In this document: piece by piece, positions 8-44,407 of the stretch
How positions within the stretch are numbered: the stretch's first letter is position 1
How the letters are laid out: the number at the start of each line of letters is the position of its first letter
Assembly (NCBI GenBank): GCA_038890875.1
Contig: JAWAFA010000001.1
Location: 258,617-322,616 of the forward strand
Direction: 5' to 3'
DNA length: 64,000 nt
From: Candidatus Pacearchaeota archaeon
GTDB lineage: Archaea > Nanobdellota > Nanobdellia > Pacearchaeales > JAPDKA01
Notes under the pieces: model-generated
Told to the model about the DNA's origin: nothing
Database searches by the model: none
Seen by the model: only the letters and a program-made list of their open reading frames with translations
Translations under genes and position numbers: made by a program

Positions 8-1945
8 GTGCCGCCAGGAAATGCAGAAAATGGAAGAGTCGGCTCAAGTCATCACGCTTTTTATTGTAGAGATGGCAATATTGAAGAAGTTAGTGTCGGA
101 GAATTAGTTACGAGAGGCAAAATATGTACTCAAACTGGTGAATTTATTAAACTATCAATAAATTTCTACAACGAATGTCTTAAATTAAACACTGAAGACG
201 AATGCAATAACTTTCGACCAAGCGGCCTTAGTATATGTAACTGGAGCGGTATAGGTTGCATTCCTAAATATCCTTATGGCGGCGCTGATTGTTCTTTAGC
301 TGATAATACAACAATAGTTTCTATTAATAATTGTAACATCAATAATTATCAGCAAAATTTTACTGAATGTATTAAGAATCAAAATTTAGAGTGGATTAAC
401 AAACAAATTCAAAGATGCTCAGCAATTGGTGATTGTGGCAACAGTGCTCATTTTTTAAATGAAATCAAAATTGAACCAGGTTATAGTTTTATAGCATCTC
501 CTTTAAATGAAACACACGCATTACTTATGTTTAGATGTGAGAAAGTCGTTAGTAGCTATGATATTTCTGGTAGTAATTGTGAAAAGTGCAACAACTCAGC
601 ATATTTTGGTTATAATCGAATATGCTCTCAATATGAGTGTGAAAGCCTTGGAAGTAACTGTATATCTGATCAGGATCAATGCAAAGCAAATTATGACTTT
701 ACTCCTATAGAATTAAATGAGTTTACTGTAAGAACAAATCAAGTAGAATGCTCAGCTATAAAGCCAAATATTACCACAACAGGAAAAATAGAATGTGTAA
801 CATCAAGTAAATGTATTCCTCCACAAATACCCTTAACATTAGCCTACAGTACAAATAAAGAAACAATATGTAAAATAGCTATTTATCCAAAAGGTCAAAG
901 TTTAACTGTTGACTGGCTTAACATGACAAATGCAGATAATACTGGAAATGTATTTAGTAAGCGGCATAAATGGGATATCCCTTCTTTTATTTTTCCATTA
1001 ATTAATCCAAGTACAACCTTTGAAGCAACAGCTTATCTTGTTTGCAAGGATAAGTTCAATTTAACTCAAACCTATAAAGCTGAGTTTTGTATAGCGAATC
1101 AAGATGTGGTAGCGCCAATAATAACCTCCTCTATTGAAAATGGAGCCAGGCTTCTTCCAGGAAATCAAAAGATGAAAATATATGTAAATGAACCAATAAA
1201 AGAATGTACATATAGCTATGGTTCAAAATCAGAAACATTGCAGCAATCAAGCTTTTCTCTTGATGCTTTAGGAAGATGGACAACTGAGGTAAACTTTGAA
1301 ATGTTAACTACACCATTAACATTTTCAATTGCATGTACTGATCTTAGTAATAATCAAGGCTCTTTAAGCCTGAACTTAATCCCAGCTTTAGGCAGTTTCA
1401 ATTTAGAAATAAAATCCCCTATTAACAATAGTGCAATCGTTGGTTGTGGAGACATGGTATCTGTTAACCTAAAAGTTGTAACCAGTGGTGATGCTGGAGA
1501 TGGAAAAGGAAATAGTAACTGCTATTATTCAAGTGATAATACAAATTGGGATATTATTCCTCCTTCTTCAAGTAATGAACATGAAATACAACTTTTACTT
1601 GGTACAGGAGATTATACTTATTATGTTAAATGCAATGATGCATATGGCCAAGGTCTTACAGCTTCAAGTACTGTGAACTTCAATGTTAATACAAACAAAA
1701 GAGGCCCACTTGTTACAAGAATTTATAAAGAAGGCGATGAGCTTGTGCTGCATACAGATAAGGTTGGTAGCTGTTATAAGCTAAGTTACTGTGAACAGCC
1801 AATTACTTCTTTTATTACCAAGCTGACAGAAAAAGCACAGAATATATTTAGTCTACCATGGCAACTCATTCCTTTAAATATAAGGTGTATTGATAATTGT
1901 AATAATAAAGGTGAATGTATCGTAATAAATCCACTTGAAATTTAA
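8..1945 (+). CDS. Cys-rich, NxS/T-sequon-rich secreted/surface protein. Probably 5'-partial: the reading frame is open to the window edge and no signal peptide is seen.
   Basis: 645-aa ORF with very high Cys/Asn/Thr content and many N-x-S/T sequons. No stop upstream in frame. Overlaps the next surface-protein gene by 11 nt. Confidence 0.5.
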   Translation: MPPGNAENGRVGSSHHAFYCRDGNIEEVSVGELVTRGKICTQTGEFIKLSINFYNECLKLNTEDECNNFRPSGLSICNWSGIGCIPKYPYGGADCSLADNTTIVSINNCNINNYQQNFTECIKNQNLEWINKQIQRCSAIGDCGNSAHFLNEIKIEPGYSFIASPLNETHALLMFRCEKVVSSYDISGSNCEKCNNSAYFGYNRICSQYECESLGSNCISDQDQCKANYDFTPIELNEFTVRTNQVECSAIKPNITTTGKIECVTSSKCIPPQIPLTLAYSTNKETICKIAIYPKGQSLTVDWLNMTNADNTGNVFSKRHKWDIPSFIFPLINPSTTFEATAYLVCKDKFNLTQTYKAEFCIANQDVVAPIITSSIENGARLLPGNQKMKIYVNEPIKECTYSYGSKSETLQQSSFSLDALGRWTTEVNFEMLTTPLTFSIACTDLSNNQGSLSLNLIPALGSFNLEIKSPINNSAIVGCGDMVSVNLKVVTSGDAGDGKGNSNCYYSSDNTNWDIIPPSSSNEHEIQLLLGTGDYTYYVKCNDAYGQGLTASSTVNFNVNTNKRGPLVTRIYKEGDELVLHTDKVGSCYKLSYCEQPITSFITKLTEKAQNIFSLPWQLIPLNIRCIDNCNNKGECIVINPLEI

Positions 1946-4172
1946 AATGAAAAAACAAAATTTAATCTTGTTTATTTTTTTCACCTTTATTTTAATTACT
2001 CCACTAATCTTAAGTCAAACAGAAGAGATAACTAAAATAAAAAAAGCCTATTCTTGGCTCAGAACAGAAGGAATAGAAAAATTTAACACTCTTACAGAAA
2101 AGCAGGCCTCTTTTACTATCTTTGCTTTAAAGGAAAAATTGACTGTTGATAAAGCAAGACTTATGCACAAAATATTGCTTGAAAAAAGTTATGACAATGG
2201 GACTTGCTGGCCAGGACCAAATGAAAATGATTGTAATGCTTTAACAACTGCTATCGTAAAACTTGCTCTTGATTCTCTTAGTAAAGATACAAGTAAGGCA
2301 AGTGCTTGGCTTCTAAAGAACTCTTTTTCAGTCCAAACAATCAATATTAAATCTTTTTTACAGGTCATTCCTATCACAGCTGAAACGATAAACTGTCAAA
2401 TAAAAACAAATACATCAACAGGGATAGTTAGTTTTAGCGCTGAAGGATTGGTTAATTCAATTGATAGCGAATTGACTTCATGTTTTGCTAGTACAATTTA
2501 TTCACTTCAACTTAATCAAAGTTGCTTAAATGATATTTTTAGAATAACATGTGACAAAGATGTAAAAGTTAATTTTATTTATAAGAAAAGTGAAGGACAA
2601 GAATGGTATGTGACCAATAAACTAGATTTTGTTAGTGCAATGCAAGAAAAAGAAATACAGCCCTTGAAAGCACTATGCATAGCCAAAGGACAAGTATGTG
2701 ATTATGAAGCTAGTTTATGGGCAGCCATTGCTTTTAAAAATTCTAATCTAAGTGTTGCCAAAAGCTTTCTCCTTTATCTTATTTCAGAAGCCTCAGTTAA
2801 TGAGCAGTACTTACCAGAAGCATTTTTGTATGCTTTAACTAATGCAAGTGATTATACTAATCAAGTTATCAAACTGCAAAGGTTTGATGGACTTTTTGTT
2901 GCCCCTAACACAGCTTATAACGAATATTACGATACTGGACTCGCAGGAGTAATGGGAAGTTTGAATAAATTAAATTTAACTGTAACAAAATCAACCTTGC
3001 TCAACAATCAAACGAGAGAAGGATTTTGGAGCGCAAGCAATAATGTTGATGCTATCAGAGATACTGCCCTGATTCTAGCAGGAATATGGCCTACTTTTAC
3101 AGGAGTTTCAACTTGCGAACAGCAAGGCTACAGCTGTGTTCAAAATTGTAGCGCAATTAATGGAGCATTAGTTGCATTATCTTGCTATACGGGAGAATGT
3201 TGCAATATAAATAGTATTGAAGGAGCTTGTGAGCTTAAGGCAGGGAACTGTACTGATACCACTACATGCCCTTCAAACACAACTCAGGTTCCTTATGCTT
3301 GTTCCCAAGGAAAATGCTGCAAACAAATAACTAAGTCCCTATGTGCAGCAGAAATTAATGGAACAATCTGTCAACCTAATCAAAAATGTTTGGTGAATGG
3401 TACTATTGTTCCTTTTATTAGCTCAAGTGATAGTGCTTACTGCTGTATTGGAAATTGTATAAGTTCAACAAAAGCATGTGCTGAACAAGGAGGTGAAATA
3501 TGCGACCCACAGCAAAAATCATGTCAAAATAAATGGTTATTTGCAAGTGATACGAGCTATTGTTGCCAGCAAGGTTTTTGCGCAGATGTTTTATTGACTT
3601 GCCAACAAATGGGAGGAGTAATATGCGAGGCAGATCAAGATTGTAAAGGAGGTTATCTTGTTACAGCGAGCAATACTGCTGGTAAGGCAACTTGTTGTGT
3701 TCAAGGAGGGACTTGCCTAAAGAAGACTTGTGAGCACAATAAATGTGAATCAGATGAAACTTGCAATGGAAATTCTTATGAGACAAGCGATGCTTTAAAG
3801 TGTTGTGAAGGTAATTGTGAAAAGCCATGCTCTTCTTTAGGTGGTAATGTTTGCCCCGAAAATTATAAATGTAAGGGGGAAGTCCTAAATTCTTCAGACA
3901 CAACATCATGTTGCATTGGTGATTGTGTTGAAAAGAAAGGCCTTCCATTCTTTATTATAATCATTTTGATTATTGTGATCATTTTCATAATTTTATTCTT
4001 TTTAATAAAGAAAGGTTATATTTCTAAATTAAAATCTAAATTTAAAAAGAAGCCTACTGCCCCTTCAGTACCAACATTAAAAACAATGCCAACGTTGACA
4101 AAAACAACTAGGCTAGCCTCTAAACCTATGCCGCCAACCCAACCAATTCAACCAAGACAAATCCAAAAATGA
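1935..4172 (+). CDS. Surface-anchored cysteine-rich repeat protein. It has a signal peptide, tandem CC-motif modules, a C-terminal TM helix and a basic/Pro-Thr cytoplasmic tail.
   Basis: N-terminal hydrophobic signal (LILFIFFTFILITPLILS). At least six ~35-40 aa repeats carry the CC motif (YCCIGNC, YCCQQGFC, TCCVQGGTC, KCCEGNC, SCCIGDC). The C-terminus has FFIIIILIIVIIFIILFFLI followed by KKGY... and a PT-rich tail. Confidence 0.6.
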   Translation: MKFKMKKQNLILFIFFTFILITPLILSQTEEITKIKKAYSWLRTEGIEKFNTLTEKQASFTIFALKEKLTVDKARLMHKILLEKSYDNGTCWPGPNENDCNALTTAIVKLALDSLSKDTSKASAWLLKNSFSVQTINIKSFLQVIPITAETINCQIKTNTSTGIVSFSAEGLVNSIDSELTSCFASTIYSLQLNQSCLNDIFRITCDKDVKVNFIYKKSEGQEWYVTNKLDFVSAMQEKEIQPLKALCIAKGQVCDYEASLWAAIAFKNSNLSVAKSFLLYLISEASVNEQYLPEAFLYALTNASDYTNQVIKLQRFDGLFVAPNTAYNEYYDTGLAGVMGSLNKLNLTVTKSTLLNNQTREGFWSASNNVDAIRDTALILAGIWPTFTGVSTCEQQGYSCVQNCSAINGALVALSCYTGECCNINSIEGACELKAGNCTDTTTCPSNTTQVPYACSQGKCCKQITKSLCAAEINGTICQPNQKCLVNGTIVPFISSSDSAYCCIGNCISSTKACAEQGGEICDPQQKSCQNKWLFASDTSYCCQQGFCADVLLTCQQMGGVICEADQDCKGGYLVTASNTAGKATCCVQGGTCLKKTCEHNKCESDETCNGNSYETSDALKCCEGNCEKPCSSLGGNVCPENYKCKGEVLNSSDTTSCCIGDCVEKKGLPFFIIIILIIVIIFIILFFLIKKGYISKLKSKFKKKPTAPSVPTLKTMPTLTKTTRLASKPMPPTQPIQPRQIQK

Positions 4173-4708
4173 TTATTAATGCAAAAAAACAAAAAAAAGC
4201 AAAAAAAGCATTTGAGCTTAGTTTTACTTTTCTCTTTTCTTTAATTTTAATTGCTGTTTTTATTTTTGTAGCAATATGGGCAATAAAAAATTTTCTAGAG
4301 TTAAAAGATTCAACAATGATAAGAACATCAATAAATGATATAAATACGGTTGTTATTGAAGTCTGGCAAGCAGAAGAAGCTCAAAGAATAGAAACCTTTA
4401 TATTTCCGACAACAGTCACACAAATTTGTTTTGCCAATTTATCCGAACTAATAACAACAACATCAACAGACTTAACATCAACAGACTTAGATCCCTATAA
4501 ATCATTATACAAAAACACTGACAAAAATCTTTTTGTTTTGCCATTTAAGCTACGCAATAAATACAACTTAGAAGGTGCCTATGCTATAAAATGTGGAGAG
4601 GTAAATTGTTTAAATTTTACAAATCCAACTTGTTTTAATGTTGTTAAGGGAAAGGTAACTCTAACATTTGTAGGAATGCCTGAAGGTAAGGTTAGGATAA
4701 GCAAATAA
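4169..4708 (+). CDS. Pilin-like protein with an archaeal class III (type IV prepilin-like) signal peptide.
   Basis: N-terminus is MIINAKKQKKAKKA/FELSFTFLFSLILIAVFIFVAIW: a Lys-rich n-region, then K-K-A, then a long hydrophobic stretch. Start overlaps the stop of the upstream gene (ATGA). Confidence 0.45.
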   Translation: MIINAKKQKKAKKAFELSFTFLFSLILIAVFIFVAIWAIKNFLELKDSTMIRTSINDINTVVIEVWQAEEAQRIETFIFPTTVTQICFANLSELITTTSTDLTSTDLDPYKSLYKNTDKNLFVLPFKLRNKYNLEGAYAIKCGEVNCLNFTNPTCFNVVKGKVTLTFVGMPEGKVRISK

Positions 4709-4709
4709 T

Positions 4710-5102
4710 CTAAAATAATACCTTGTTATTTATAATAAAGTGCTCTACTTCTATTTGTTTGTTTTTAAATTCTCCTTTTATAATAGTTTTGATATCCTTA
4801 TTTTTATCATAATCATACATTACATATGCATCAGTAACTTGATCAATTATCTCTGAAGTTAGTTGAGAAGGCTTAGCGGTCCCATAAACAACTAAAGAAT
4901 ATAAGCTATAGGGCTCGCCTTTCCAGCATTCAAATCTTAGCTCTTTGCTACCTGAAACAAAGCAAATATTAGTAGTAACTTCAATTTTTTTTCCTTCATA
5001 TCTTTTAGGATTTTTTACGAGATCTTCGATAGAGACCTCTTTATAATTGCAAGAGGAAAAAGTTAAAAGAGCTAAAGCAGCTAAGATATTTTTTATTTTC
5101 AT
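4710..5102 (-). CDS. Small secreted lipoprotein-like protein.
   Basis: Signal peptide with a lipobox-like FSSC motif (MKIKNILAALALLTFSSCNYK). 130 aa, no recognisable catalytic motif. Confidence 0.4.
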   Translation of the reverse strand: MKIKNILAALALLTFSSCNYKEVSIEDLVKNPKRYEGKKIEVTTNICFVSGSKELRFECWKGEPYSLYSLVVYGTAKPSQLTSEIIDQVTDAYVMYDYDKNKDIKTIIKGEFKNKQIEVEHFIINNKVLF

Positions 5103-5185
5103 TTTAATTTTTTATTTTCATTTTAATTTTGTTTTCATTAATATAAAAGTTTTAAACTTAATAATCCTTTATAAATTTAATTAAT

Positions 5186-6136
5186 ATGAAAAATAAAAAA
5201 AGAGGTAAAAAAGAAAAAGGTATAAAGGCGCAGCTGCCGGCTTTTGCCTGGATATTTAGTATTATTATCGGCGCCGTTATCTTGTTTTTCGCATTTTTCT
5301 TTGTTACTCAATACGGCAAGCAAGTTGCCGAGCCAACGAGGGCTGCAGGCATAGAAAGCGGGATAGCGATTTTACTTGAACCATTTGCCGCAGTTGGCTC
5401 TCTTGTTGAAGCTCAAGGAAGCATTCTTGAATTTCCGGCAGGAAGCTATATAGAATTTGGTTGTAATATTGATAATGATTACAGTGAAATAAAGGCAAGA
5501 AATATTAAAGAAAAAACTTTTTCATTAACAAAAAAAGTCTATGATAAGTATCTCTTCAGTCAACCGATAACAACAAGGAACAAGGCAAAGCTTTTTGCTT
5601 TTTCTATGCCAATCAAAGAACCTTTTTACATTGCAACTCCGATTGTGATCGTTAATGGCAAATATTGCTTTAGCTCATTGCCATTACAATACAAAAACAC
5701 TTTAGAAAAAATTTCAGAAAAGATAAATGAGACAGATTCTGCTTTTAACTTTACAAGTTGTCCTTCAGGTTATATACAGGTTAATATTGATTGGTGTGAT
5801 TCAGCTTGTAATTATGGGTATATAGGAAAAAAATATTGGTTTGGTGATTTAATATTTCCTGCAATTTTTTCAGATGAATTAACATATAATTGTAATCTTG
5901 ATAGAATGTTGGAAAGGGAAAAAGTTCTTATATCCATTTATAAAAAGAAAGTAGAAAACTTAGGAAATAAAGGATGCCCTACAGCAGGGATGTCATCAGC
6001 TTTAGATAATTTTAAAACACAGGTTGATAATTTTCAAAAAAATAAAAATATCAACAATCTTGCATCTCTTTATAATTCAATTAAGCAAATAGAAAATTTA
6101 AATGCAGGCCTTCCGTCTGATTGTAAAATAATATGA
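5186..6136 (+). CDS. Pilin-like / class III signal peptide protein (large pilin or pilus-associated adhesin).
   Basis: N-terminus MKNKKRGKKEKGIKAQ/LPAFAWIFSIIIGAVILFFAFFFV. The rest of the protein is Cys-containing and extracellular-like. Confidence 0.45.
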   Translation: MKNKKRGKKEKGIKAQLPAFAWIFSIIIGAVILFFAFFFVTQYGKQVAEPTRAAGIESGIAILLEPFAAVGSLVEAQGSILEFPAGSYIEFGCNIDNDYSEIKARNIKEKTFSLTKKVYDKYLFSQPITTRNKAKLFAFSMPIKEPFYIATPIVIVNGKYCFSSLPLQYKNTLEKISEKINETDSAFNFTSCPSGYIQVNIDWCDSACNYGYIGKKYWFGDLIFPAIFSDELTYNCNLDRMLEREKVLISIYKKKVENLGNKGCPTAGMSSALDNFKTQVDNFQKNKNINNLASLYNSIKQIENLNAGLPSDCKII

Positions 6137-6675
6137 TTAAAAAGACAGAAAGCAAAGTTAAACAAGCACAAATCCAGTTTCAAGAAATGGCTTTTGTATT
6201 AGTTGGACTAATTCTTTTTTTTGCTTTGCTTCTAACTTTTTTCAGCATTTTTCAATCAGCAAAAATAAAGCAATTAGCAACAGAAACAAGAAGAGAGGAA
6301 ACTATTGCAAAACTCGAAAGTATTGCTAATATGCCAGAATTTTCTTGCAGGGAAGCTTTTTGCATTGATGAAGAGAAATTGATAGGTTTTCTAAATCTAC
6401 CATTGCAGCAACAAGAAAAATATTTTGAGGCCTGGGAAAAATCAAATTTAATCTTAATAAAAGTTGAAAGGATTTGGCCTGAAAAAAGTGGGAAATGTAA
6501 TGAACAAAATGTTGGCGAGTGCAAGTTTTATGAAATTTTTAATAAAACAATAGGTAAGAACTATGAAGCACATTCAACTTTTATGCCACTATGCTACTAT
6601 TCATCAACACAATGGTACCAAGGATATAGATGCGATATAGGTAAAATTATCGTTGGGTTTGAAATAGCAAAATGA
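6133..6675 (+). CDS. Pilin-like protein with a class III signal peptide.
   Basis: N-terminus ...KVKQAQ/IQFQEMAFVLVGLILFFALLLTFF. Overlapping start/stop with both neighbours (ATGA), which suggests an operon. Confidence 0.45.
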   Translation: MIKKTESKVKQAQIQFQEMAFVLVGLILFFALLLTFFSIFQSAKIKQLATETRREETIAKLESIANMPEFSCREAFCIDEEKLIGFLNLPLQQQEKYFEAWEKSNLILIKVERIWPEKSGKCNEQNVGECKFYEIFNKTIGKNYEAHSTFMPLCYYSSTQWYQGYRCDIGKIIVGFEIAK

Positions 6676-7184
6676 AAGCTAAAACAAAAAAAGCGCAACA
6701 AGAGATTTTTGGTTTCGTAATAATCATTTTACTAGTTATTGTAATTGGTATAATTATTTTAACATTTTCTTTGCAACGAAGCTTAAGAAAGCCAACATTT
6801 GTTATCGATGTAAAAGTAAATGATTTGTTAAATGCTGTAATGCATTATACAACCGGATGCAAAAATAAGAAGATCAGTGAAATAATAGGAATAGTGGTAG
6901 TAAATAGTAATGAAAAATGTGATGGCGAGAATGCAAAAACTTATCTTGAAAATATTCTTAAAAATATTTTAAATGCAAGTTTTCCTGGTTTGGAATATGG
7001 TTATTTGAATGGTTATAATCTAACTATTTTTACCCAACCGCTAATTTCAATTACATCTGGTAAGCTGGAAGGAAATGTTGTTGTCGGTTCTTATATAATC
7101 CCTGTTTTTACAGAAGGTCAAGCAAGCAATATTGAAGCTAGGCTTTATCTTTATTATAGTGGCAAAAAGAGTGAAAAAGCTTAA
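6672..7184 (+). CDS. Pilin-like protein with a class III signal peptide.
   Basis: N-terminus MKAKTKKAQ/QEIFGFVIIILLVIVIGIIIL. This is the classic K-K-A-Q followed by a hydrophobic helix. Confidence 0.5.
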   Translation: MKAKTKKAQQEIFGFVIIILLVIVIGIIILTFSLQRSLRKPTFVIDVKVNDLLNAVMHYTTGCKNKKISEIIGIVVVNSNEKCDGENAKTYLENILKNILNASFPGLEYGYLNGYNLTIFTQPLISITSGKLEGNVVVGSYIIPVFTEGQASNIEARLYLYYSGKKSEKA

Positions 7185-7186
7185 TA

Positions 7187-8110
7187 TCAAATGTCGAATA
7201 TGTTTGTTAAAATTATTGGTTTTTCTTTAATTATAATTGTTGTTTCGGCCTGGCTCACTTTTGCTCCTGTTTTTTCGACGAGCTCTGGATAATTATAAAC
7301 CAGGCCTTGGCTCTCGAAAAGCTTTAGCGCAATACTTGCGTTTTCAAACTTAAGCCATCGCTGCGAGAAGGGAAAACTGTTAAAATTTTTGTTTATCCAT
7401 TCATAAATCTCTCGATGTGTCCGTGGCTTTTGGAGTTTTTTTAAAATCCAAATTGCGCTAGGTTTTCCATTAACAACCGAGCCACTTGCATTTGGCAATG
7501 TTACAAATGGCTCAATCGCAATTACATCATTTTCTTCTAACTTTGTTTTATCATTATTGTTATAGTTAGGGATTGTTTTTCCTCCATGTAGGCTTGTTTT
7601 ACTTATTTCATGTCCTGTAAGATTGTATATTGGTCTAAACCCAAACTCATTAATTTTTTCTTCTATAGCTTTACCAATTTCACAAACTTCAACTTCAGGC
7701 TTTGCAACTTGTAACGCGGCCTTTAAAGCTTCCTTAGCAGTTTTTATTAGCTCTTTATTTTTCTCAGAACCTTCAAGATCAAGGCTTATAGCCGCATCAG
7801 CAATACAATCGTTAACTCTAACTCCTATATCAACTTTTAATAAACCTGAAGCTACGGTTGTATCATTTGTAAATGGGCTATAATGAGCAGCTATTTCATT
7901 AATACTTAAATTTGGTGGGAATGCAAGCGCAGCACGAATGGCACGGCTCTTTTCAATAAAGTTCTCAAGCTGTTCAGCTATCTTAAGAAGTAAGACTTCT
8001 TTTTTACAAATTTTCTTCGCTAAGCTTAAAGTTTGCTCAAGTAGCTTACCAGCAGTTTTATAATCTTTGATTTCACCTTTTCCCTCAACTTTTCCCTCAA
8101 CTTTTCCCAT
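7187..8110 (-). CDS. map: Methionine aminopeptidase, type 2 (archaeal).
   Basis: Pita-bread fold signature regions (…IAAHYSPF…, VDIGVRVNDCIADAA…, HGGKTIPNY). Length 307 aa is typical of archaeal MetAP2. Confidence 0.7.
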   Translation of the reverse strand: MGKVEGKVEGKGEIKDYKTAGKLLEQTLSLAKKICKKEVLLLKIAEQLENFIEKSRAIRAALAFPPNLSINEIAAHYSPFTNDTTVASGLLKVDIGVRVNDCIADAAISLDLEGSEKNKELIKTAKEALKAALQVAKPEVEVCEIGKAIEEKINEFGFRPIYNLTGHEISKTSLHGGKTIPNYNNNDKTKLEENDVIAIEPFVTLPNASGSVVNGKPSAIWILKKLQKPRTHREIYEWINKNFNSFPFSQRWLKFENASIALKLFESQGLVYNYPELVEKTGAKVSQAETTIIIKEKPIILTNIFDI

Positions 8111-8115
8111 AAATT

Positions 8116-9795
8116 TTATCTTTTGCGCTTTATTTTATATACCATTCTTACAATTTTGTAAATTATAATTGCAATAAAAATAGCTGTTAAAATTAACGTT
8201 GAATAGAAAATTTTTTGATAGGCATAAGGATAAACAGCCGGTTTTTCTGTTGGCAATACTTTTAAAATGAATGGAATCTCTTTAATTTCAATAGGGATTT
8301 TTTTATAAACAATCCTTGTATCATTAGCAATTATTCTTATCCAAAAGTCGTATGTTCCTTTTTTTATCTCTTTTTCACTACTAACATTTATTATTGTTTT
8401 TAACAAATTCTTTTTTTCTAAAAACTTCTTACTTACTACTTCCTGGCTTAGATTAAATAAACTTTCATTATCTCTTGGTTTTTCTATTAAAATTAATAAA
8501 TTCTGAAGATCTTGAAGAGGAACAAAATCAATTTCAATTTCAAATTGCTCTCCTTGGTAAATTTTTTTTGGAGCAAGTATGGTAAGTTCGTAACCTTCAA
8601 TCGCCACAGCCTCTTTAATTTCACAAGCTTTTATAACTTTCCGACCTAGAAAATAGGAGGGGCATTCGCAATAAATAAAAGAACTTTCCTGCCACCCACT
8701 GCATGCCCCGCTAATATCACAACTTCGAACAGCCCATTTTACTAACCGTGTTTCATTGAAAACAAGAATTTTCGGACTAGTTACATTACTTTCTATTACC
8801 CCCTCTAATTTAAATTCATCATAACAGGCCTGGCCTTCACTATCAAAATTTGCCGATTGCCATTCAAATCTTACCTCTTCGTTGCATACATTTTGTATTA
8901 CTGTTAAATTTGGTTTTGGGCAAGGCAAATTTTGTACACTGAAAGTATCAGTTGCCCAATCACTACATTGCCAAAAATCACAAGCACGAACTTTCCATTC
9001 ATGTAAGCCAAAGCTGAGTCCTTCAACAAGTTGAGGACTGGTTACATTTTCTCTAAGCTCAGAATCAATCATAAAGTCATAGCTTATAGGATCATTATCA
9101 GAGTCACTTGAATTTTGCCATTGTAACAGAACTGTATTATTGTTAGTATTTTGTTGGTCAATCAAAACAGGGGTAGTTGGTATAGAATTTAAAATTGTAA
9201 AGTTATCATAAGCGTCATCAGAACAGCATTGTGTATTGCAAGTCTTTACTTTCCATTCATGAAAACCTATAGCAAGATTGATTCTTGTTGCAGGACTTGT
9301 TATATTTTGCCAAATTCCATCTAGATAAAACATATCATAAGTTGGCAAGCCATTAGGATCTATTCCAGATGTCCAAGCAAAAGTAACATTATATGTTTTA
9401 TTCATAGGATGAAAATTGTTGACAGGTTGTAAAATAGGTACTGAAGGAGCCTCGCATAATGTTAAATTCAAACTTAAAACACCATATTCGTCCGCTTGCC
9501 CGATACCTCTTGCATAAAAGTTTCCTTTTTTGGCTTCAACCTCCCCATAGCTGTAAGGTTCGAGTGCAAGATTAGCTACAATATAATAACCATTATCTTG
9601 AGTCAACGTCTGTCGATTGCAATATTGTGAAGGTGCGGTACAGTTTATTATTAAAATATTAACAATTGCATTACTAGCATTAGTTCCATTAGAATAAAAA
9701 ACAAATCCATCAGCAACTCCGAGATAGATTTGTGCTTTTGCATTAATTAAGAGAATAAAAAAAGCTAAAATAGCAGCCAAAACTTCCTTTCTCAT
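8116..9795 (-). CDS. Surface protein with a signal peptide, repeated W/C-rich ~90-aa modules and a C-terminal TM anchor.
   Basis: N-terminal signal (AAILAFFILLINAKAQ). Repeated motifs HEWKVKTCNTQCCSD / HEWKVRACDFWQCSDW / VKWAVRSCDISGACSGW. C-terminal TM (LILTAIFIAIIIYKIV) plus a basic tail. Many NxS/T sequons. Confidence 0.5.
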   Translation of the reverse strand: MRKEVLAAILAFFILLINAKAQIYLGVADGFVFYSNGTNASNAIVNILIINCTAPSQYCNRQTLTQDNGYYIVANLALEPYSYGEVEAKKGNFYARGIGQADEYGVLSLNLTLCEAPSVPILQPVNNFHPMNKTYNVTFAWTSGIDPNGLPTYDMFYLDGIWQNITSPATRINLAIGFHEWKVKTCNTQCCSDDAYDNFTILNSIPTTPVLIDQQNTNNNTVLLQWQNSSDSDNDPISYDFMIDSELRENVTSPQLVEGLSFGLHEWKVRACDFWQCSDWATDTFSVQNLPCPKPNLTVIQNVCNEEVRFEWQSANFDSEGQACYDEFKLEGVIESNVTSPKILVFNETRLVKWAVRSCDISGACSGWQESSFIYCECPSYFLGRKVIKACEIKEAVAIEGYELTILAPKKIYQGEQFEIEIDFVPLQDLQNLLILIEKPRDNESLFNLSQEVVSKKFLEKKNLLKTIINVSSEKEIKKGTYDFWIRIIANDTRIVYKKIPIEIKEIPFILKVLPTEKPAVYPYAYQKIFYSTLILTAIFIAIIIYKIVRMVYKIKRKR

Positions 9796-10445
9796 TTTTT
9801 ATTCAATATAAGTTTACTTCTATTATAAATTAAAAGGTGTGGTTGAGTAGCCAGTATAAATTGTCCCTCTCCGACAAAAATTTCATCAAATGGATTTGAC
9901 TGAGCTAAAGGTGAATAAATTTCAAATTCTTGGCTTTGTTTGTTCCATTTCATCAAATATTTATGCAATGAGGCATTGAAATATTTTATTATGCTTGCAT
10001 TAAACTCGTAAGGCCAAGAGGGAGCATTCCAACCGGCATTCATACTTATTTCAAGATCACTGTTATTTGCTCCTCCAAAACCGATACTTGTCACATTATC
10101 AACTAATATAAAATAGGATTCATTTAAATTTGTTAAATTAAAAGGATTATCTAAAGCGCGCGGGCTATAAACTTGAAATTCTGTACCATTCCATTTAAGT
10201 ATATAACGAAAATTAGTTTGTTCATAGTTAAAAATCTCATTTATCGATCCAGTTTTGTTCGTACAAACTGAAACAAAATTCCATCCTGGAACAAGATCAG
10301 AACTGCATTTTGGAACAATAAAAAAAGAAAGCCAGCCATAAGCTACTGCCTTTGTCGTAATAATACTGGAAGTATCTAATGCACTAATTAAGGATAAATC
10401 AAGAAATAAGCATAAAGCAAAAGCAAATAAAAATTTTGATTTCAT
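9792..10445 (-). CDS. Secreted protein with an internal domain duplication.
   Basis: Signal peptide. Two homologous halves: YILKWNGTEFQVYSPRALDNPF vs YLMKWNKQSQEFEIYSPLAQSNPF. Translationally coupled (ATGA) to the upstream surface-protein gene. Confidence 0.45.
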   Translation of the reverse strand: MKSKFLFAFALCLFLDLSLISALDTSSIITTKAVAYGWLSFFIVPKCSSDLVPGWNFVSVCTNKTGSINEIFNYEQTNFRYILKWNGTEFQVYSPRALDNPFNLTNLNESYFILVDNVTSIGFGGANNSDLEISMNAGWNAPSWPYEFNASIIKYFNASLHKYLMKWNKQSQEFEIYSPLAQSNPFDEIFVGEGQFILATQPHLLIYNRSKLILNKK

Positions 10446-17529: not shown

Positions 17530-18645
17530 TTAGTGATAGTTAATTTTTATATCCTCTGGTTTTACCCCTTTAATTTCTATAGTTATGTTTCCGTATTTTA
17601 TTTTAAAAGTTTCATCGGTTTTGTTTTCAATTTTTGTTTCTATTTCTTTTATTTCCACTTTTTCTTGCTTAACCTCTTTTTTCCTTTCTCTTTTTTCTAA
17701 TGTTTGTTCTTTTTTCTTGTTAATCTTTTCAAGTGTTGTTTTTATTTCATCAAGTGAGGAGGCAATTTTTGAAATTTCAAATCCTTGTTTTTTAAGTCTC
17801 TCAAATTTTCTCTTGTAAATAGCTTCTACTTTTTCTTCAAGGGTAGCTTTTTCTCCAAGTTGACAATTTTTTGGTAGCAGAACTATTTGACCCTTTTTAA
17901 GGTACCCTCTTGTTATTTGTGGGTTTAATCTATTAATGAGATGATTATTACAAACTTTTCTAAGATTATATAAATCATTATTCGAGCTAGCATAATAGAT
18001 TTTAGCTTCTGAGAAGATGTCTTTGTCAGTTATTCTTTCTTCAATTTTCTTACATGAGTGAATTGTTTTTAAAATATTATTTATATAATTTCTAATAGTC
18101 TCTACTTTGTTTAACTTTCCAACTTTATCCTCTCCAGCAACATAAGCTACTAAAGCATCTTCTAGCCTCCTATATTTTTCTATCAAATCTCTTATTTCTT
18201 CAACTCCGGCAATGATGCTGAATGGCGAGAATCTCCAATCTTCATAATAGTTAATATTTAAGCCATGCCTCCTTGCAGTTGACTTCATAAGTTGCATTAC
18301 TCCAGCAGCCCATTTTGGGGAAAGTGCATAAGGATTTCCTTTTGATTCAACAAGAATCACTGCGGCAATAGTGCAAAAGTCAATCCCAAAGACATCAGCT
18401 GCAAAATCAATTATTTTTTTATATTCCTCTATATTACTTACCGCATCAATATAGCTTGAATAACAACTATTATCATTACAATAACTTTCAACTTCATTCG
18501 CTACTATTTTCACAATTTTGTTCCCACCAATGAGCCCCCCTCCCTCTAATCCATCCCCTTTAAAACTAGAAACGTTTATATTAAGCAGTGAAGAGAGTAT
18601 AAGAGTAGATAACAACTTTTTGTTATTTTTTATAATTTTTATCAT
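17530..18645 (-). CDS. Secreted lytic transglycosylase (Slt/family-1 SLT domain) with a Lys/Glu-rich coiled-coil C-terminus.
   Basis: Signal peptide. SLT motif I is VILVESKGNPYALSPKWAAGVMQLM (ES-GNP-A-S-AGA-G-MQLM). The C-terminal ~90 aa are a KE-rich coiled coil. Confidence 0.7.
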   Translation of the reverse strand: MIKIIKNNKKLLSTLILSSLLNINVSSFKGDGLEGGGLIGGNKIVKIVANEVESYCNDNSCYSSYIDAVSNIEEYKKIIDFAADVFGIDFCTIAAVILVESKGNPYALSPKWAAGVMQLMKSTARRHGLNINYYEDWRFSPFSIIAGVEEIRDLIEKYRRLEDALVAYVAGEDKVGKLNKVETIRNYINNILKTIHSCKKIEERITDKDIFSEAKIYYASSNNDLYNLRKVCNNHLINRLNPQITRGYLKKGQIVLLPKNCQLGEKATLEEKVEAIYKRKFERLKKQGFEISKIASSLDEIKTTLEKINKKKEQTLEKRERKKEVKQEKVEIKEIETKIENKTDETFKIKYGNITIEIKGVKPEDIKINYH

Positions 18646-31442: not shown

Positions 31443-32411
31443 ATGAAAAACCATCTTAAAAAAATAATCAATTTTTTGCTTGCCTCAAGTATTTTTTTTA
31501 CTTATACTGCCGCAGCCGTACCTAAATCAGTTGAGTCGATCAAACCTATCCCAAAAGAAATTAAGGACATCTCTATGTATCAGGAATGGCTTGATCGATA
31601 TGAATTGAATAATTATAATTATTCAAGTGAAAATTTTTATTCTTGTTTTCAGAGAATGGAAAAATATAGGAATATAATAGAAAAAGCAGCAAAAGAGTCA
31701 AGATTGCCTGTTTGCGAGTTAGAAGCTTTAATAGCGATTGAATCTTGCGGTTTGTTAAAAGCACATTCAAAAGCTGGAGCAAGTGGACCAGCACAATTAA
31801 TGTATGGAAAAGCTAAAGAATTTGGAATAAAAATAACTAGTACTGAAGATTGGAGATATAGTGTAGATTCGATTTTTCCAGCGGCTAAATATTTCGCAAA
31901 GGTGAAAAAAAATTATGGATTGGAGAATGCACTAATAGCTTATAATGCTGGTGAGAGTAAAGCTAACAACATTAATCATCTTGAAGAGTGGGAAGATAAG
32001 AGGGATTATATACCATATGAAACACAAAAGTATGTTCCAAGATTTATGAATGCGGCTGTCCAATGCCTTGAATATGAAGAAGAGAGAAAAAATCATGTAA
32101 AAATAGCTCAAAAAGGAGATACATTATGGAAAATAGCTAAAGAATGTAAAAGTAATGTAGAAAAAATAAAAAAAATTAATGGAATTTCCGGTAAAAAGAT
32201 ATTCTCTGGGCAAAAAATAGTGTGCAGTGAAGATTATTTTGACATATTTGCTAAAGCAACCTTTTATACTGTTAAAACAAATGATACTATGGCAAAGATA
32301 GCTAGAAAATATGGAATTTCACCAGAGCTGTTAAAATATCTAAATCCACAGATAAAAAAATTTTCCAACTTAACTCCAGGAATGAAAATAAGAATAATAA
32401 AAAGTGAATAA
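31443..32411 (+). CDS. Secreted lytic transglycosylase (SLT domain) with two C-terminal LysM domains.
   Basis: Signal peptide. SLT motif IAIESCGLLKAHSKAGASGPAQLM with a downstream AYNAG. LysM 1 is VKIAQKGDTLWKIAKECKSNVEKIKKINGI. LysM 2 is YTVKTNDTMAKIARKYGISPELLKYLNP. Confidence 0.75.
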   Translation: MKNHLKKIINFLLASSIFFTYTAAAVPKSVESIKPIPKEIKDISMYQEWLDRYELNNYNYSSENFYSCFQRMEKYRNIIEKAAKESRLPVCELEALIAIESCGLLKAHSKAGASGPAQLMYGKAKEFGIKITSTEDWRYSVDSIFPAAKYFAKVKKNYGLENALIAYNAGESKANNINHLEEWEDKRDYIPYETQKYVPRFMNAAVQCLEYEEERKNHVKIAQKGDTLWKIAKECKSNVEKIKKINGISGKKIFSGQKIVCSEDYFDIFAKATFYTVKTNDTMAKIARKYGISPELLKYLNPQIKKFSNLTPGMKIRIIKSE

Positions 32412-32461: not shown

Positions 32462-33880
32462 ATGCAAAAAAAATTAATTATTTTTCTTATTGCTTTAGCA
32501 ATTATTGCAATAGTAATTGCTTCAATTATTAAATTTTCCTCGCCTAATGTAATAAGTGAATCAAGCGGAAAAAGAATCAAAGTTGGATATATTATTTACG
32601 TCAATAATTCAGTTTATGAAAGTTCAGAATTAAGTTTTGAGGATAGTTTTTCCAAACAGCTTGGCCTGGTTGGTAATAAAGCTGATAGTTACTTTGATAA
32701 TGTCAAAGTTAGTGATGAGTTTAACATAAGCCTTAAAGCTGAGGAAGCTTATGGTAATTATAATGAGAGCTTGCGAAAGATTGTTAATCGAACAATGAGT
32801 GATAAAAGAATTATTGAATTGAACTTAGGAGGAGAAATCACTCAGGATCAATTTTATCAAGTTTTTAATCAACTACCAATCGTAAACCAAACATATTCAT
32901 CTACTCTCTTACCTTTCAAGATAAAAGTTACTAGAGTTGATAATAACAATGTTAACTTTGTCTTTGATGTTAAGATCAATGATCAAACAGCAAAAGATCA
33001 AAATGGATTTTGGTTAAAAGTAGTTAAGGTAGATGAAAAAAATAATTTAATGCAACTTAAACTTGAAGGTGAGCCAAAAAAAATTGCAACTGAAAAAGGT
33101 CTTATTGATATTTGGTTTGATGAAGAAAATATCTATTATAAACTTACACCGAAAATAGGAGATAGCATTGAATGGCATAATGAGTATGGTAAAGTTGCAA
33201 GTTACAATGAAACTCATATTATTTTCGATAACAACCATCCTCTTGCTGGCAAGGATATAGTAATAACTATCAGAGTACTTGATGTTTCGAGTGAAATTAT
33301 TAAAGCTTCATGTAAGGCAAATTCCGGTCCAACATTTGATGTTTTTATTATGAGCTATTGCCCATTCGGTATACAATTTGTTAAAGGCTTGCTTCCTGTT
33401 TGGAAAGCGCTTGAAAATGATGCCAATATCAATGTTAGATTTGTAAGTTATACGATGCATGGTCAAAAAGAAGCTAATGAAAATGCAAGAATGGTTTGTA
33501 TAAGGGAGGAACAATGCGAAAGCTATCGCGCATATCTTGAGTGTTTTGTGCAAAGTGGCGATTCTGAAAGTTGTATAAATAAACTTAATATAGATAAAAC
33601 CAAACTTGATGAGTGTATGGCAAAAAAAGCACAGAGTTATCTTGAATATGATGCCCAGCTTAATGAAAAGTATGGCGTGAAAGGAAGTCCGACGGTGGTG
33701 CTCAATGGAAAACAGATTGAAGTTTGGCCAAGAAGCCCAGCCAATATAGCAAGAATACTTTGTGAATCATTCACTTCAGAACCAAGTGCATGCTCACAGC
33801 GCTTTAGTGATGAAAATCCTGGCCCTGGCTTTGGCACTTCATCAACTTCATCAAACTTAGGGAGTTGTGGGGCAGCTTAA
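32462..33880 (+). CDS. Membrane-anchored extracellular protein with a C-terminal DsbA/thioredoxin-like domain (atypical CPFG active site).
   Basis: N-terminal TM. FDVFIMSYCPFGIQF (CxxC position reads C-P-F-G). A cis-Pro region GSPTVVLNGKQI typical of DsbA-like folds. Additional paired cysteines near the C-terminus. Confidence 0.45.
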   Translation: MQKKLIIFLIALAIIAIVIASIIKFSSPNVISESSGKRIKVGYIIYVNNSVYESSELSFEDSFSKQLGLVGNKADSYFDNVKVSDEFNISLKAEEAYGNYNESLRKIVNRTMSDKRIIELNLGGEITQDQFYQVFNQLPIVNQTYSSTLLPFKIKVTRVDNNNVNFVFDVKINDQTAKDQNGFWLKVVKVDEKNNLMQLKLEGEPKKIATEKGLIDIWFDEENIYYKLTPKIGDSIEWHNEYGKVASYNETHIIFDNNHPLAGKDIVITIRVLDVSSEIIKASCKANSGPTFDVFIMSYCPFGIQFVKGLLPVWKALENDANINVRFVSYTMHGQKEANENARMVCIREEQCESYRAYLECFVQSGDSESCINKLNIDKTKLDECMAKKAQSYLEYDAQLNEKYGVKGSPTVVLNGKQIEVWPRSPANIARILCESFTSEPSACSQRFSDENPGPGFGTSSTSSNLGSCGAA

Positions 33881-35119: not shown

Positions 35120-35360
35120 AAGGAAGGTGTAAGCAGGTATAAGCCTCCTTTTGTCGCTCGATATTGAGCGTTCAGCATTCTACTAAGCGGCTCAGAGCGA
35201 GCCTTGCACGCTTAGGCTGGCCGTTTCATCCACAAGCAAGCTCGTGGTCTCGTTTCTGTGCCAGAGCCGTGCCTTTCGACACGTGCTTTTCAGCACTAAG
35301 CGTTTTATGTGGGAGGACTTTCCTCTCGTAAAACGAGACAGCTGAGCCCTGCTTACATAA
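35120..35360 (-). ncRNA. rnpB: Probable RNase P RNA, minimal/compact form (~235 nt).
   Basis: A GC-rich island in the AT-rich intergenic region. The minus-strand transcript has a 9-bp terminal P1 stem (GUAAGCAGG / CCUGCUUAC). Just downstream of P1 is GAGAGGAAAGUCCUCC (CR-I, the P4 5' strand). Near the 3' end is ACAAAAGGAGGCUUAU (the ACAGAA-CCGGCUUAU-like CR-V, P4 3' strand). There is an internal GGCACAGAAAC. Confidence 0.55.
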
Positions 35361-38179: not shown

Positions 38180-38506
38180 ATGAAAAATAAAAAGGCGATT
38201 TCATTCCTTTTTCAGATAATCATAGAAATCTTAATAATAACTATTGTTTTTGCTTTATTAGCTTTTTTTGTTGTTTCTTCCCAAGGACTTGATACAAAAA
38301 AAGTAGCATTATCAGAGCTTAGCTTTTTTGTTTCAATGTTTGACGACGTCGAAGTTAATATAAATTCAAGTGAATTTAATGTTAGCGAGCTTAGCTATGA
38401 AACCAACTCTTTTGTTCTATCAATTTCTCCGATTATAAAATATAGAAGCCCTGTCTATGTAAAGAAAGAGATAGATTTAATTGATGGCAATCTAAGAATA
38501 AAATGA
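38180..38506 (+). CDS. Pilin-like protein with a class III signal peptide.
   Basis: N-terminus MKNKKA/ISFLFQIIIEILIITIVFALLAFFVV. First gene of a four-gene overlapping operon. Confidence 0.45.
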   Translation: MKNKKAISFLFQIIIEILIITIVFALLAFFVVSSQGLDTKKVALSELSFFVSMFDDVEVNINSSEFNVSELSYETNSFVLSISPIIKYRSPVYVKKEIDLIDGNLRIK

Positions 38507-38901
38507 AAGAAAAAAAAGCACAACTTCTTGGAAGCGAATACTTGTTATGGATTTATAGATTCTTTTTAATCTCTCTTGTTGCTTTAGGTACCGTTATCAT
38601 AGTTGCTAAATATAATAGCATTGAGCTTGATAAAAAACCTCTAATAGCAAGCCAGCTGCTCAATGCAGTTCTTGAATGTAAAGAAGAAAATAAATTAAAC
38701 TGTATTTTTTATAATCAAATTTATGATATTTATGTTTCTTACGATAAAAAAGAAATTGGTAAAAAAGATTTAATTATTTTGTGCGAGGCTAAAGAATCTG
38801 GAGTTGAAATACCAAATATAGATTTATTCTGTAAGAACTATAAAATAATTGTTGCTAATAAAATAAAAAATTTAAAGATAGCAATAGCAAGTGAAAAATG
38901 A
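38503..38901 (+). CDS. Pilin-like protein with a class III signal peptide.
   Basis: N-terminus MKEKKAQ/LLGSEYLLWIYRFFLISLVALGTVII. ATGA overlap with both neighbours. Confidence 0.45.
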   Translation: MKEKKAQLLGSEYLLWIYRFFLISLVALGTVIIVAKYNSIELDKKPLIASQLLNAVLECKEENKLNCIFYNQIYDIYVSYDKKEIGKKDLIILCEAKESGVEIPNIDLFCKNYKIIVANKIKNLKIAIASEK

Positions 38902-39383
38902 AAACAGCAAAAAAAGCCAAAAGAGCACAAACAAGCGTCTTTGGTTTAATTTTAGCAACTTTTATTCTTATCTTTTTAATAATCATTTACCTTCTTTTTT
39001 CAGTATTCTATAAAGGAATAAATGAGAAAAAAAATTTAAAAATAACTGAACAGCTTGATGAAAAAATTTTATCTTACTATTTACTTGATGCAATGTTCAC
39101 TGAACTAGATGCAAGCACAATGCAAAAAATTTATGATCAGAGTAAGATGAAATATAATTTGTCTAACTTTGCCGAGCTATTTTATGCATACTATTCATCT
39201 AAAGATGATGAAAAGCTTATAGAAAATATAATTAATAAAAAGCTTGATGAGTTGGAACTTTCTGATTATACTTTACAATTTGAAATTATTAAAATCGATA
39301 AAATTGATAAGAGAGAAGGAGCAAGAGTTTTTCTTCCTTTTTCAAATTCAAGCGTAATCGAAATTAATCTAATAAAAAAATAA
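38898..39383 (+). CDS. Pilin-like protein with a class III signal peptide.
   Basis: N-terminus MKTAKKAKRAQ/TSVFGLILATFILIFLIIIYLLF. Confidence 0.5.
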   Translation: MKTAKKAKRAQTSVFGLILATFILIFLIIIYLLFSVFYKGINEKKNLKITEQLDEKILSYYLLDAMFTELDASTMQKIYDQSKMKYNLSNFAELFYAYYSSKDDEKLIENIINKKLDELELSDYTLQFEIIKIDKIDKREGARVFLPFSNSSVIEINLIKK

Positions 39384-39390
39384 ACTTAAA

Positions 39391-40134
39391 ATGAAAAGCA
39401 AAAACAAGGAAGGAGGCAAAAGAGGATTTGCACTTTTTCCTTGGTTAATTATAATAGTTGCCCTGGTAATATTTAATATTGCTTCTTTTATTCTTCTTGA
39501 AAAAACAAAGGAAAAGATAAAAAGTATAGAAAATCTTGATGAAGTTATTGATTACTCTTGGTTTATCAAAAATTATGAGAGATTTTTAAATTTATCTTAT
39601 GAACTAGCTTATGCTCAAGCTTTGAACGATCTTTCTCATATGCCCAGTTTTGATTGTGAAATTATCCAAATTAGTGGCGAAACTTTTTTTTCTCTTGAGA
39701 AGTGTAAGTTAGATCAAGATTTATTTCTCAACAATTTTAAACAGAGATTTAATGAGCACATTAATTCATTTTCTACTCTTACCAATGCTAAAAGTGAATG
39801 TAATTTTGATAATAATAAGGTAGATTGTCAATTAACTTTTAATAAAACATTTGAGCTAAATTTTTTAAATCTGACAACAAAAAAAGTTGTTAAATTTGAA
39901 AGAGCGATTGATCTTAGCTATATAAACAACCTAGAAGAAGCGAGAAAAGAAGTTCTTGAAAAAATAAAAGCAATAAAAATAGCCGAAACAGAGCAATCTA
40001 TACCTAAAAAATATTCCATTAAAATTGAATTAATTTCAGGAAGGCAGAAGATTACATTTTTAACAAAAAAATTTTTCTTGGTTGAAAATGACAAAGTTTT
40101 ATATAAGGAAATTCCTTTAATTTTTATTTATTAA
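39391..40134 (+). CDS. Pilin-like protein with a class III signal peptide (largest subunit, possibly a tip or minor pilin).
   Basis: N-terminus MKSKNKEGGKRG/FALFPWLIIIVALVIFNIASFILL. This is a textbook [KR]-G-[F]-hydrophobic prepilin-peptidase site. Confidence 0.55.
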   Translation: MKSKNKEGGKRGFALFPWLIIIVALVIFNIASFILLEKTKEKIKSIENLDEVIDYSWFIKNYERFLNLSYELAYAQALNDLSHMPSFDCEIIQISGETFFSLEKCKLDQDLFLNNFKQRFNEHINSFSTLTNAKSECNFDNNKVDCQLTFNKTFELNFLNLTTKKVVKFERAIDLSYINNLEEARKEVLEKIKAIKIAETEQSIPKKYSIKIELISGRQKITFLTKKFFLVENDKVLYKEIPLIFIY

Positions 40135-43921: not shown

Positions 43922-44407
43922 TTAAAACTCTGAGGAGTTTTCATAGCACAACAAGCCCAACAAGCCTTTTGTGCCTATAGCAATAAAATTAACGATAAAT
44001 ACAATAAGCATGCTTAGTGTTAATAAATCAACTATGAAGCAATATCTACATATCGCCTTTATTACAAAAAACTGCAAAAATAAAAGATAGAGCGAGAATA
44101 ATGACATAGCGACTAGGAGAAAAAATATGGTTTTATTTTTAACATTGCTTGGATTTTTTATTTGGGCAGCACTTAATAAGACTAAAATTAAAAATGCAAG
44201 CATCCCTAAAACGCTTAAAGGTAGTCCTGCTATATCAGAGAAAGCGCTTGCATCAACAATTGCACAACCTCCCCCAATAAAACAAGAATCACTGGGCTTA
44301 ATTTTATTAATCTCTATATAGCCAGAAATAACTAGACTTATTATTGAAACAATTAATATGTATACTAGTGCAATTTTTTTTCTTTTTTTTGGTTCCGAGT
44401 ATTTCAT
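43922..44407 (-). CDS. Vitamin K epoxide reductase (VKOR)-family membrane thiol oxidoreductase.
   Basis: Polytopic membrane protein. A loop Cys pair (SDSCFIGGGCAIV) comes first, followed by an intramembrane CxxC (AICRYCFIV). This order is diagnostic of VKOR rather than DsbB. Confidence 0.55.
   Translation of the reverse strand: MKYSEPKKRKKIALVYILIVSIISLVISGYIEINKIKPSDSCFIGGGCAIVDASAFSDIAGLPLSVLGMLAFLILVLLSAAQIKNPSNVKNKTIFFLLVAMSLFSLYLLFLQFFVIKAICRYCFIVDLLTLSMLIVFIVNFIAIGTKGLLGLLCYENSSEF

Follow-up and report, generated by a model that had tools for sequence, protein, structure and literature searches.

The Epd pilins of Methanococcus maripaludis are cut by the peptidase EppA, at the sites RAQI, KGQV, KGQV, KGQL and KGQI in EpdA to EpdE (PMC4371748), and EppA needs a glutamine at position +1 (PMC4371748; PMC2910488). 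The sites of archaeal class III signal peptidases are set by the residues at -2, -1 and +1, the one at -2 being positively charged (PMC3387779). Archaeal pilin sets are often encoded apart from the genes of the assembly ATPase and the TadC platform, beside surface layer (S-layer)-like proteins and adhesins (PMC4858521). An Epd-like 'system 1' is present in 'a few DPANN' (bioRxiv 10.64898/2026.04.22.720090). Here we compare these systems with a cassette of four genes, named g1 to g4, at positions 4169-7184 of a 64,000-nucleotide stretch of DNA (the window, counted from its first letter). The window belongs to a 486-kb contig of a Candidatus Pacearchaeota metagenome-assembled genome, with a GC content of about 30%, and the archaeal RNase P RNA at 35129-35356 shows that it is archaeal.

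We regard it as fairly probable that g1 to g4, together with a fifth family named c8, form a conserved set of minor-pilin-like envelope proteins with class III signals of the EppA/Epd kind, i.e. [KR]-[GA] followed by Gln. The proteins of the g1-g4 region are identical to the GenBank 'hypothetical proteins' QW244_01475 to about QW244_01495. All five families are unannotated ('hypothetical' in GenBank) and new to Pfam and NCBIfam, and pilin-like sets beside S-layer or adhesin genes are already known in archaea. Pacearchaeota and Woesearchaeota are abundant, uncultured DPANN archaea with minimal genomes, thought to be host-attached. If g1 to g4 and c8 are prepilin-type subunits, they would be the best current candidates for an attachment or envelope-spanning apparatus in these lineages, and the EppA-type signal with Gln at +1 would extend beyond methanogens and Thermococcales.

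The likeness to the Epd pilins and other EppA substrates lies in a short basic leader, a [KR][GA]/Q site with Gln at +1 (the slash marks the putative cleavage position) and an acidic residue that often follows shortly after it. Like the Epd genes, the cassette clusters several differing pilin-like genes, some for minor subunits, and system 1 is reported in some DPANN. The Epd cluster carries EppA, an ATPase and twin platform genes, whereas the cassette locus lacks them in every one of 80 genomes. Furthermore, the cassette proteins differ from the Epd pilins in matching no sequence model and in being larger (165-316 amino acids) and Cys-rich, and the main S-layer gene is linked to their locus. 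The four genes are as follows.

4169..4708, plus strand: g1, pilin-like, 179 amino acids; leader MIINAKKQKKAKKA, then FELSFTFLFSLILIAVFIFVAIWAI; GenBank hypothetical protein QW244_01475
5186..6136, plus strand: g2, modular pilin-like, 316 amino acids; leader ending in KEKGIKA, then QLPAFAWIFSIIIGAVILFFAFFFV; 5 invariant Cys
6133..6675, plus strand: g3, pilin-like, 180 amino acids; leader MIKKTESKVKQA, then QIQFQEMAFVLVGLILFFALLLTFFSIF
6672..7184, plus strand: g4, pilin-like, 170 amino acids; leader MKAKTKKA, then QQEIFGFVIIILLVIVIGIIILTF

These open reading frames (ORFs) had been listed in a first-pass annotation of the window, and we find all four where it placed them, with the N-termini that it quoted. 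They share one layout: a Lys-rich leader of 8-15 residues, followed by Ala, by Gln or Phe, and by 21-24 hydrophobic residues. The N-termini read MIINAKKQKKAKKA/FELSF in g1, KEKGIKA/QLPAFAWIF in g2, SKVKQA/QIQFQEMAF in g3 and MKAKTKKA/QQEIFGF in g4. Positions -2 and -1 are thus K-A in g1, g2 and g4 and Q-A in g3, and position +1 is Gln in g2, g3 and g4 and Phe in g1. Consequently, the annotated pattern of a Lys-rich leader, [KR]-[AG]-[QF] and a helix of about 20 residues describes g1, g2 and g4 and does not describe g3, which has Gln instead of Lys or Arg at -2 (KQA/Q). Both window g1 at +1 and window g3 at -2 depart from the consensus of their own families, which is K[RK][GA]Q[MIL]xLSFGMIFSII for g1 and K[KR][GA]Q[ML]KIQ[QE]MAF for g3. 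The first-pass annotation had drawn the cut after the Gln; by analogy with the EppA substrates it would fall before it.

The motif [KR][GA]Q was scored within 12 residues ahead of the hydrophobic segment, using orthologues from related loci. It precedes the helix in 86% of the c8, 66% of the g1, 78% of the g3 and 77% of the g4 orthologues, compared with 2.2% (6/269) of the other N-anchored ORFs of these loci, an enrichment of 30-40 times. The sites of g2 are [KR]G-[Y/L/I/F] or KAQ, and here the broad form [KR][GA]x is present in 87% of the orthologues and [KR][GA]Q in just 14%. Using the broad [KR][GA] site, 77-89% are reached in each orthologue family against a background of 15.6% in the other N-anchored ORFs. 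Four N-anchored neighbour families used as controls (c6, c7, c10 and c29) have the motif in 0-8% of their members.

The N-terminal segment is also the best conserved part of each of the families g1 to g4, with an entropy of 1.1-1.2 bits in the N-terminal 26 columns versus 2.0-2.4 bits in the rest. The contrast is weaker for c8 (1.40 versus 1.80 bits), and nothing similar is seen in c6 and c7, the ordinary N-anchored neighbours. Across 131 sequences of g4, the residues Q9, G14, F15, I18 and V22 never vary, and E10/E11 reach a conservation of at least 90%; in a joint alignment of c8, g1 and g3 the Gln is conserved to at least 90%. From this Gln onwards the consensus is QMKLSFGMIF in g1, QMKIQQMAF in g3, QEEMVGF in g4 and QVTIFII in c8. 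Conservation of the N-terminus exceeding that of the remaining protein is a pattern typical of pilins. Judged from the alignments, the prepilin-like N-termini are real and under selection.

Relatives of g2 were searched for in one genome per GTDB species, and 80 loci were fetched. They occur in at least 131 GTDB species genomes labelled Pacearchaeota, Woesearchaeota or Nanoarchaeota. In a set of 5.8 billion proteins, g2 has 40 homologues; those that are named are all from Pacearchaeota, and none of the 40 carries a Pfam domain. The g4 family is larger: clustered at 90% it counts 778 members, and at 50% there are 1700 representatives (E≤1e-3). Searching with phmmer, orthologues of g1, g2, g3 and g4 were found in 78, 80, 75 and 73 of the 83 sources, respectively. 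The order g1-g2-g3-g4 on a single strand does not vary across the 80 loci. All four genes are present in 65 of them, and the remainder are contigs cut at their ends or loci with no member in the ORF clustering. The median gaps within the cassette are +1, -7 and -4 nucleotides, i.e. tight packing; the overlaps are perhaps slightly overestimated, longest-ORF starts having been used for the gaps. In some relatives the cassette is interrupted by insertions, mostly toxin-antitoxin pairs (often HEPN/nucleotidyltransferase) at the same junctions. The pilin-operon synteny that the first-pass annotation proposed to compare across DPANN is found as a fixed order, and the window's own cassette is one of the interrupted ones. 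By sequence comparison, the cassette is both real and ancient.

The families also resemble each other. In profile-profile comparison with hhalign, g1 matched the N-terminal half of g2 at 98.3% over 150 columns, and the pairs c8-g1, c8-g4 and g3-g4 gave 92%, 75% and 71%, respectively, so that g1 to g4 and c8 are, by their profiles, distant paralogues. AlphaFold predicts for g2 (pLDDT 86.5) a 52-residue helix at 21-72, a beta-rich domain whose strands cover 77-161 and extend further, and, at 220-308, a C-terminal bundle of helices. The predicted structure of g4 (pLDDT 82.3) has helices at 8-38 and 41-57, two short helices with four conserved Cys, and a four-stranded antiparallel sheet. Both models have what appears to be the general type IV pilin layout and are compatible with a pilin.

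Within the window, an early hydrophobic segment is found in 17 of the 67 gene-like ORFs, and the Lys-rich [KR][GA]x leader occurs only in the present cluster and in one at 38180-40134, apart from one spurious match. The latter, on the plus strand, consists of four overlapping, co-directional ORFs (108, 132, 161 and 247 amino acids) with the same Lys-rich [KR][GA](Q/I/F) leader and helix. They are the hypothetical proteins QW244_01660-01675, have no Pfam matches and are neighboured on their flanks by genes for a TPR protein and an RPA-like OB-fold protein. We rejected the idea that this cluster is a duplicate of the g1-g4 cassette, as the likeness is limited to the N-termini (b3 against g4, 79% over 35 residues).

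Several results weigh against the assignment of g1 to g4 to class III signal, minor-pilin-like proteins. At the putative site, the residue at -2 is uncharged in window g3, and 2-6 polar residues (QEE, QMK, QIQFQE) separate the site from the hydrophobic run. Held against the strict form of the FlaFind pattern, the four window proteins would probably all fail. The QxSxExxxL pattern of the Epd/DUF361 proteins is not reproduced, g1 having Qx(x)LSF and g4 QEExVGF. Neither g1 to g4 nor their neighbours matched any model in Pfam or NCBIfam. When 71 g4 and 112 c8, g1 or g3 orthologues were scanned singly against Pfam at E≤0.5, Pilin_N (PF07790) was found below threshold, with a best E of 0.012, in 5 of the 71 g4 proteins and in none of the other 112, Class_IIIsignal (PF04021) was not matched by any of either group, and the remaining matches were transmembrane-type noise. 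A g4 profile found nothing among the PDB sequences, and fold searches with the g2 and g4 models retrieved no pilin and so did not confirm the layout. The hallmark of archaeal prepilins that the first-pass annotation saw in these N-termini therefore holds in the enriched [KR][GA]Q, the conserved Gln and the match to the EppA site, and falls short in that no pilin model of Pfam or NCBIfam was reached.

The same direction is taken by the search for pilus machinery. No FlaI/PilB-type (T2SE) ATPase, TadC/PilC platform protein or A24 peptidase was found in the 64-kb window, nor did any of the three turn up in the 80 related loci, where the cassette's surroundings were covered to about 10 kb. In the window, 25 proteins were compared with Pfam and the rest were screened for Walker A motifs and by number of transmembrane segments; the Walker A motif of T2SE and the GxGD motif of A24 were looked for with regular expressions in both the window and the related loci. 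A phmmer search with E. coli GspE, GspF and GspO against the ORFs in all six frames of the window and of 88 loci (1.3 Mb) gave no match at E≤1. For the source genome, this search covers the 64-kb window of the 486-kb contig; the DNA seen upstream of the window spans 8.4 kb. The literature on type IV machinery in DPANN is conflicting: a preprint by He et al. reports type IV pilus components to be missing in DPANN genomes and also describes Pacearchaeota as unusually strongly host-attached (10.1101/2020.05.14.094862), and archaellins, which need a class III peptidase, are expressed by Woesearchaeota (PMC11606122).

Much of this evidence also speaks for the strongest rival explanation, which we consider possible but clearly less probable. 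Here, g1 to g4 are uncleaved type II (N-in) signal-anchor proteins that form a membrane-tethered complex in the space under the S-layer, where they would, for instance, help to anchor or build the S-layer or serve as ectodomains that bind ligands, and that are unrelated to pilus-type assembly. In favour of it are the polar residues after the putative site, the lack of any pilin match in Pfam, NCBIfam and PDB sequences, the pilus machinery not being found near the cassette in 80 genomes and the reported lack of type IV pilus components in DPANN (10.1101/2020.05.14.094862). In addition, g4 is matched best in structure by PDC/Cache-like sensor ectodomains that are membrane-anchored, with no pilins among the matches, and the tightest conserved neighbours of the cassette are an S-layer gene (44/47) and a helix-turn-helix (HTH) regulator gene (45/47). 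What uncleaved anchors leave unexplained is the invariant Gln after [KR] and [GA] in five different families. Nor do they explain a helix that is better kept than the ectodomain (G14/F15 in g4, W/F/G/A in g2 and SFG in g1), unlike the true anchors c6 and c7. Moreover, a lack of machinery nearby is normal for archaeal pilin sets (PMC4858521).

Returning to minor-pilin-like proteins with class III signals, the data show their gene structure, conservation, paralogy, motif, predicted topology and synteny, and it is cleavage, assembly, partners and function that we infer for them. Each protein would be inserted in the membrane via its N-terminal helix, and a signal peptidase of class III encoded elsewhere would remove the Lys-rich leader of 8-15 residues ahead of the Gln. 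The conserved N-terminal helices could then pack into a short heteromeric stalk or tip complex, minor-pilin-like, in which g2 would be the 'modular' subunit bearing an extra helical-bundle domain. Such a complex might sit in or cross the S-layer, in association with the giant Cys-rich secreted proteins encoded alongside it, and plausibly serve attachment to a host cell. The dedicated adhesion or attachment filament of the first-pass annotation is an inference and unproven. Overall, its observation was largely correct and its interpretation is partly supported.

A further proposal, which we think unlikely, is that the cassette is an S-layer-coupled module independent of pilus machinery and peculiar to Pacearchaeota and Woesearchaeota. 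A fixed, membrane-anchored heteromeric stalk of prepilin-style helices would span or organise the S-layer and present the giant disulfide-rich proteins for attaching to a host. Its setting would be lineages in which, according to one study, type IV pilus ATPases are absent altogether.

Far less probable is that g1 to g4 have ordinary Sec (class I) signal peptides, cut by signal peptidase I, and are released as soluble secreted proteins. A positive n-region followed by a hydrophobic core is the Sec layout too, and the neighbouring giant proteins bear Sec-type signal peptides. However, the hydrophobic stretches of 21-24 residues have transmembrane length with no A-x-A-type site after them, in the AlphaFold models they run on as one helix of about 50 residues within the fold, and the helix is the most conserved part, unlike disposable signal peptides. 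Finally, the notion that the ORFs or the resemblance of their N-termini arose by chance in an AT-rich, Lys-rich genome, where at 30% GC Lys-rich N-termini and AAA-rich starts are common, can be dismissed as virtually without probability, being refuted by the orthologues that all four genes have, always in one order, in 73-80 of 83 sources, by the 1700 cluster representatives of g4, by confident AlphaFold models and by the 30-40 times enrichment of the motif.

Other described systems share single traits with the cassette. The minor pseudopilins and pilins GspH-I-J-K and FimU-PilV-W-X with PilY1 are comparable, by analogy only, as a set of 4-5 paralogues of low similarity, in fixed order and apart from the ATPase genes. 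By the same analogy, g2 resembles GspK and modular pilins in being a much larger subunit with an added domain, and bacterial minor-pilin sets are likewise co-encoded with a very large adhesin-like protein. They differ in that the G/F-x-x-x-E (G/[FM]xxxE) site of bacterial pilins and pseudopilins is absent from the cassette, which belongs to an S-layer-bearing archaeon; nothing points to common descent, and phmmer searches with E. coli GspG, GspH and GspK gave no match at E≤1. The sugar-binding proteins of the Sulfolobus bindosome have, like the cassette, prepilin-type N-termini on surface proteins that do not build a long pilus, and genes apart from the assembly ATPase. Unlike the bindosome, the cassette is without substrate-binding domains and ABC transporter genes, and its site is of the EppA-like Gln type and not of the PibD type. 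PDC/Cache sensors of the CitA and DcuS type have a Cache/PAS sequence-model match and a second transmembrane segment with a cytoplasmic output module, which the cassette proteins lack.

In the window, the cassette is preceded and interrupted by the following features.

8..1945, plus strand: C-terminal 645 of 1113 amino acids of a Cys-rich secreted protein of the BIG family; the start lies upstream of the window, and the full gene is L086 5142-8483
1935..4172, plus strand: Cys-rich surface protein, 741/745 amino acids; the signal peptide is of the Sec type and a transmembrane anchor is C-terminal; the called gene starts at ATG 1947
4710..5102, minus strand: inserted lipobox-like gene, 130 amino acids (MKIKNILAALALLTFSSC), between g1 and g2; also called by PGAP
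5103..5185, no strand: AT-rich divergent intergenic region of 83 nucleotides with TATA-like TTTATAAA/ATATAAAAG

Overlaps of 4 nucleotides are found between the stop of the 745-amino-acid gene and the start of g1, between g2 and g3, and between g3 and g4. The distance between g1 and g2 is 477 nucleotides, and these two genes are uncoupled here because the minus-strand gene and the divergent AT-rich region separate them. The translational coupling annotated earlier is accordingly borne out for g2/g3 and g3/g4 and not for g1/g2. The gene layout in this genome is thus the 745-amino-acid gene with g1, and g2-g3-g4, and not one four-gene operon. The region 5103-5185 is likely, from its sequence, to hold the promoter of g2-g3-g4; a sigma-70-type promoter scan of it was uninformative, as expected for archaeal DNA. 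The inserted 130-amino-acid gene is a singleton family outside the conserved cassette, with 0 homologues in the 80 related loci. The 745-amino-acid Cys-rich protein gave no match in Pfam and NCBIfam scans, and belongs to a small family (cluster 40) present in 3 other loci.

In the usual locus of the relatives, the gene for PCNA is followed by c8, by one to three BIG proteins (Cys-rich secreted proteins of 500-1300 amino acids) and by g1-g2-g3-g4. After g4 come an HTH gene of the HVO_A0114 type, which lies on the opposite strand, an S_layer_C protein of about 800 amino acids and two N-anchored proteins; further on, the models NF033505 (E 6e-64) and NF033506 (E 2e-109) match a pacearchaeosortase and a PACE-CTERM putative S-layer protein, respectively. 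The c8 protein has about 261 amino acids and an N-terminus with K-R-G-Q-V-T-I-F-I-I. Counting only loci with enough flanking sequence ('informative' loci), the neighbours are conserved as follows.

HTH gene after g4: 45 of 47 informative loci
S-layer gene after g4: 44 of 47 informative loci
BIG protein upstream: 36 of 52 informative loci
c8 upstream: 32 of 46 informative loci

The strongest conserved neighbour of the cassette is therefore the S-layer gene and not the giant proteins. The first-pass annotation had stressed the position directly after giant surface proteins, which recurs in the relatives; the S-layer gene is the closer companion. Homologues of the 8-1945 protein precede the cassette in 35 related loci. 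The linkage to the S-layer gene has been lost in the lineage of the window and in its closest relative (L006), and in the window an M24 peptidase gene follows g4. The genomic context of the cassette is all envelope.

DNA from just upstream of the window (L086) encodes a further two large proteins, of which one is Cys-rich, and contains a c8-like gene and the full gene of the 1113-amino-acid BIG protein. The c8-like protein has 267 amino acids and an N-terminus with KNKKA/AITLYVII. The BIG protein (L086 5142-8483) starts with a signal peptide of the Sec type, its Cys-rich modules are separated by long Gly-rich repeats (GGxGGxGG...), and it has no Pfam match.

In most related genomes the cassette lies within a large envelope-biogenesis super-locus, which includes S_layer_C, the HVO_A0114 HTH regulator and a PAP2 phosphatase. 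In L015, the pacearchaeosortase (NF033505) is at 7404-7937 and the PACE-CTERM protein (NF033506) at 8285-9970, both on the minus strand, and the same positions are occupied in many of the loci L006-L085. A neighbour of 177 amino acids with several transmembrane segments was considered as a prepilin peptidase and rejected, being the pacearchaeosortase.

Elsewhere in the window, a VKOR-family protein (43922-44407, minus strand; E 1e-21) and a membrane-anchored DsbA/thioredoxin-like protein (32462-33880, plus strand) are encoded. The pair suggests an extracytoplasmic system for forming disulfides, which fits the conserved Cys of g2, g4 and the giant proteins. Two secreted lytic transglycosylases with SLT domains, one of them with LysM domains, are encoded at 31443-32411 (plus strand) and 17530-18645 (minus strand); such peptidoglycan-directed enzymes in an archaeon hint at an interaction with bacterial cell walls. 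A secreted S8 subtilase of 1006 amino acids with several Ig-like/fn3 domains is found at 52026-55046 (plus strand).

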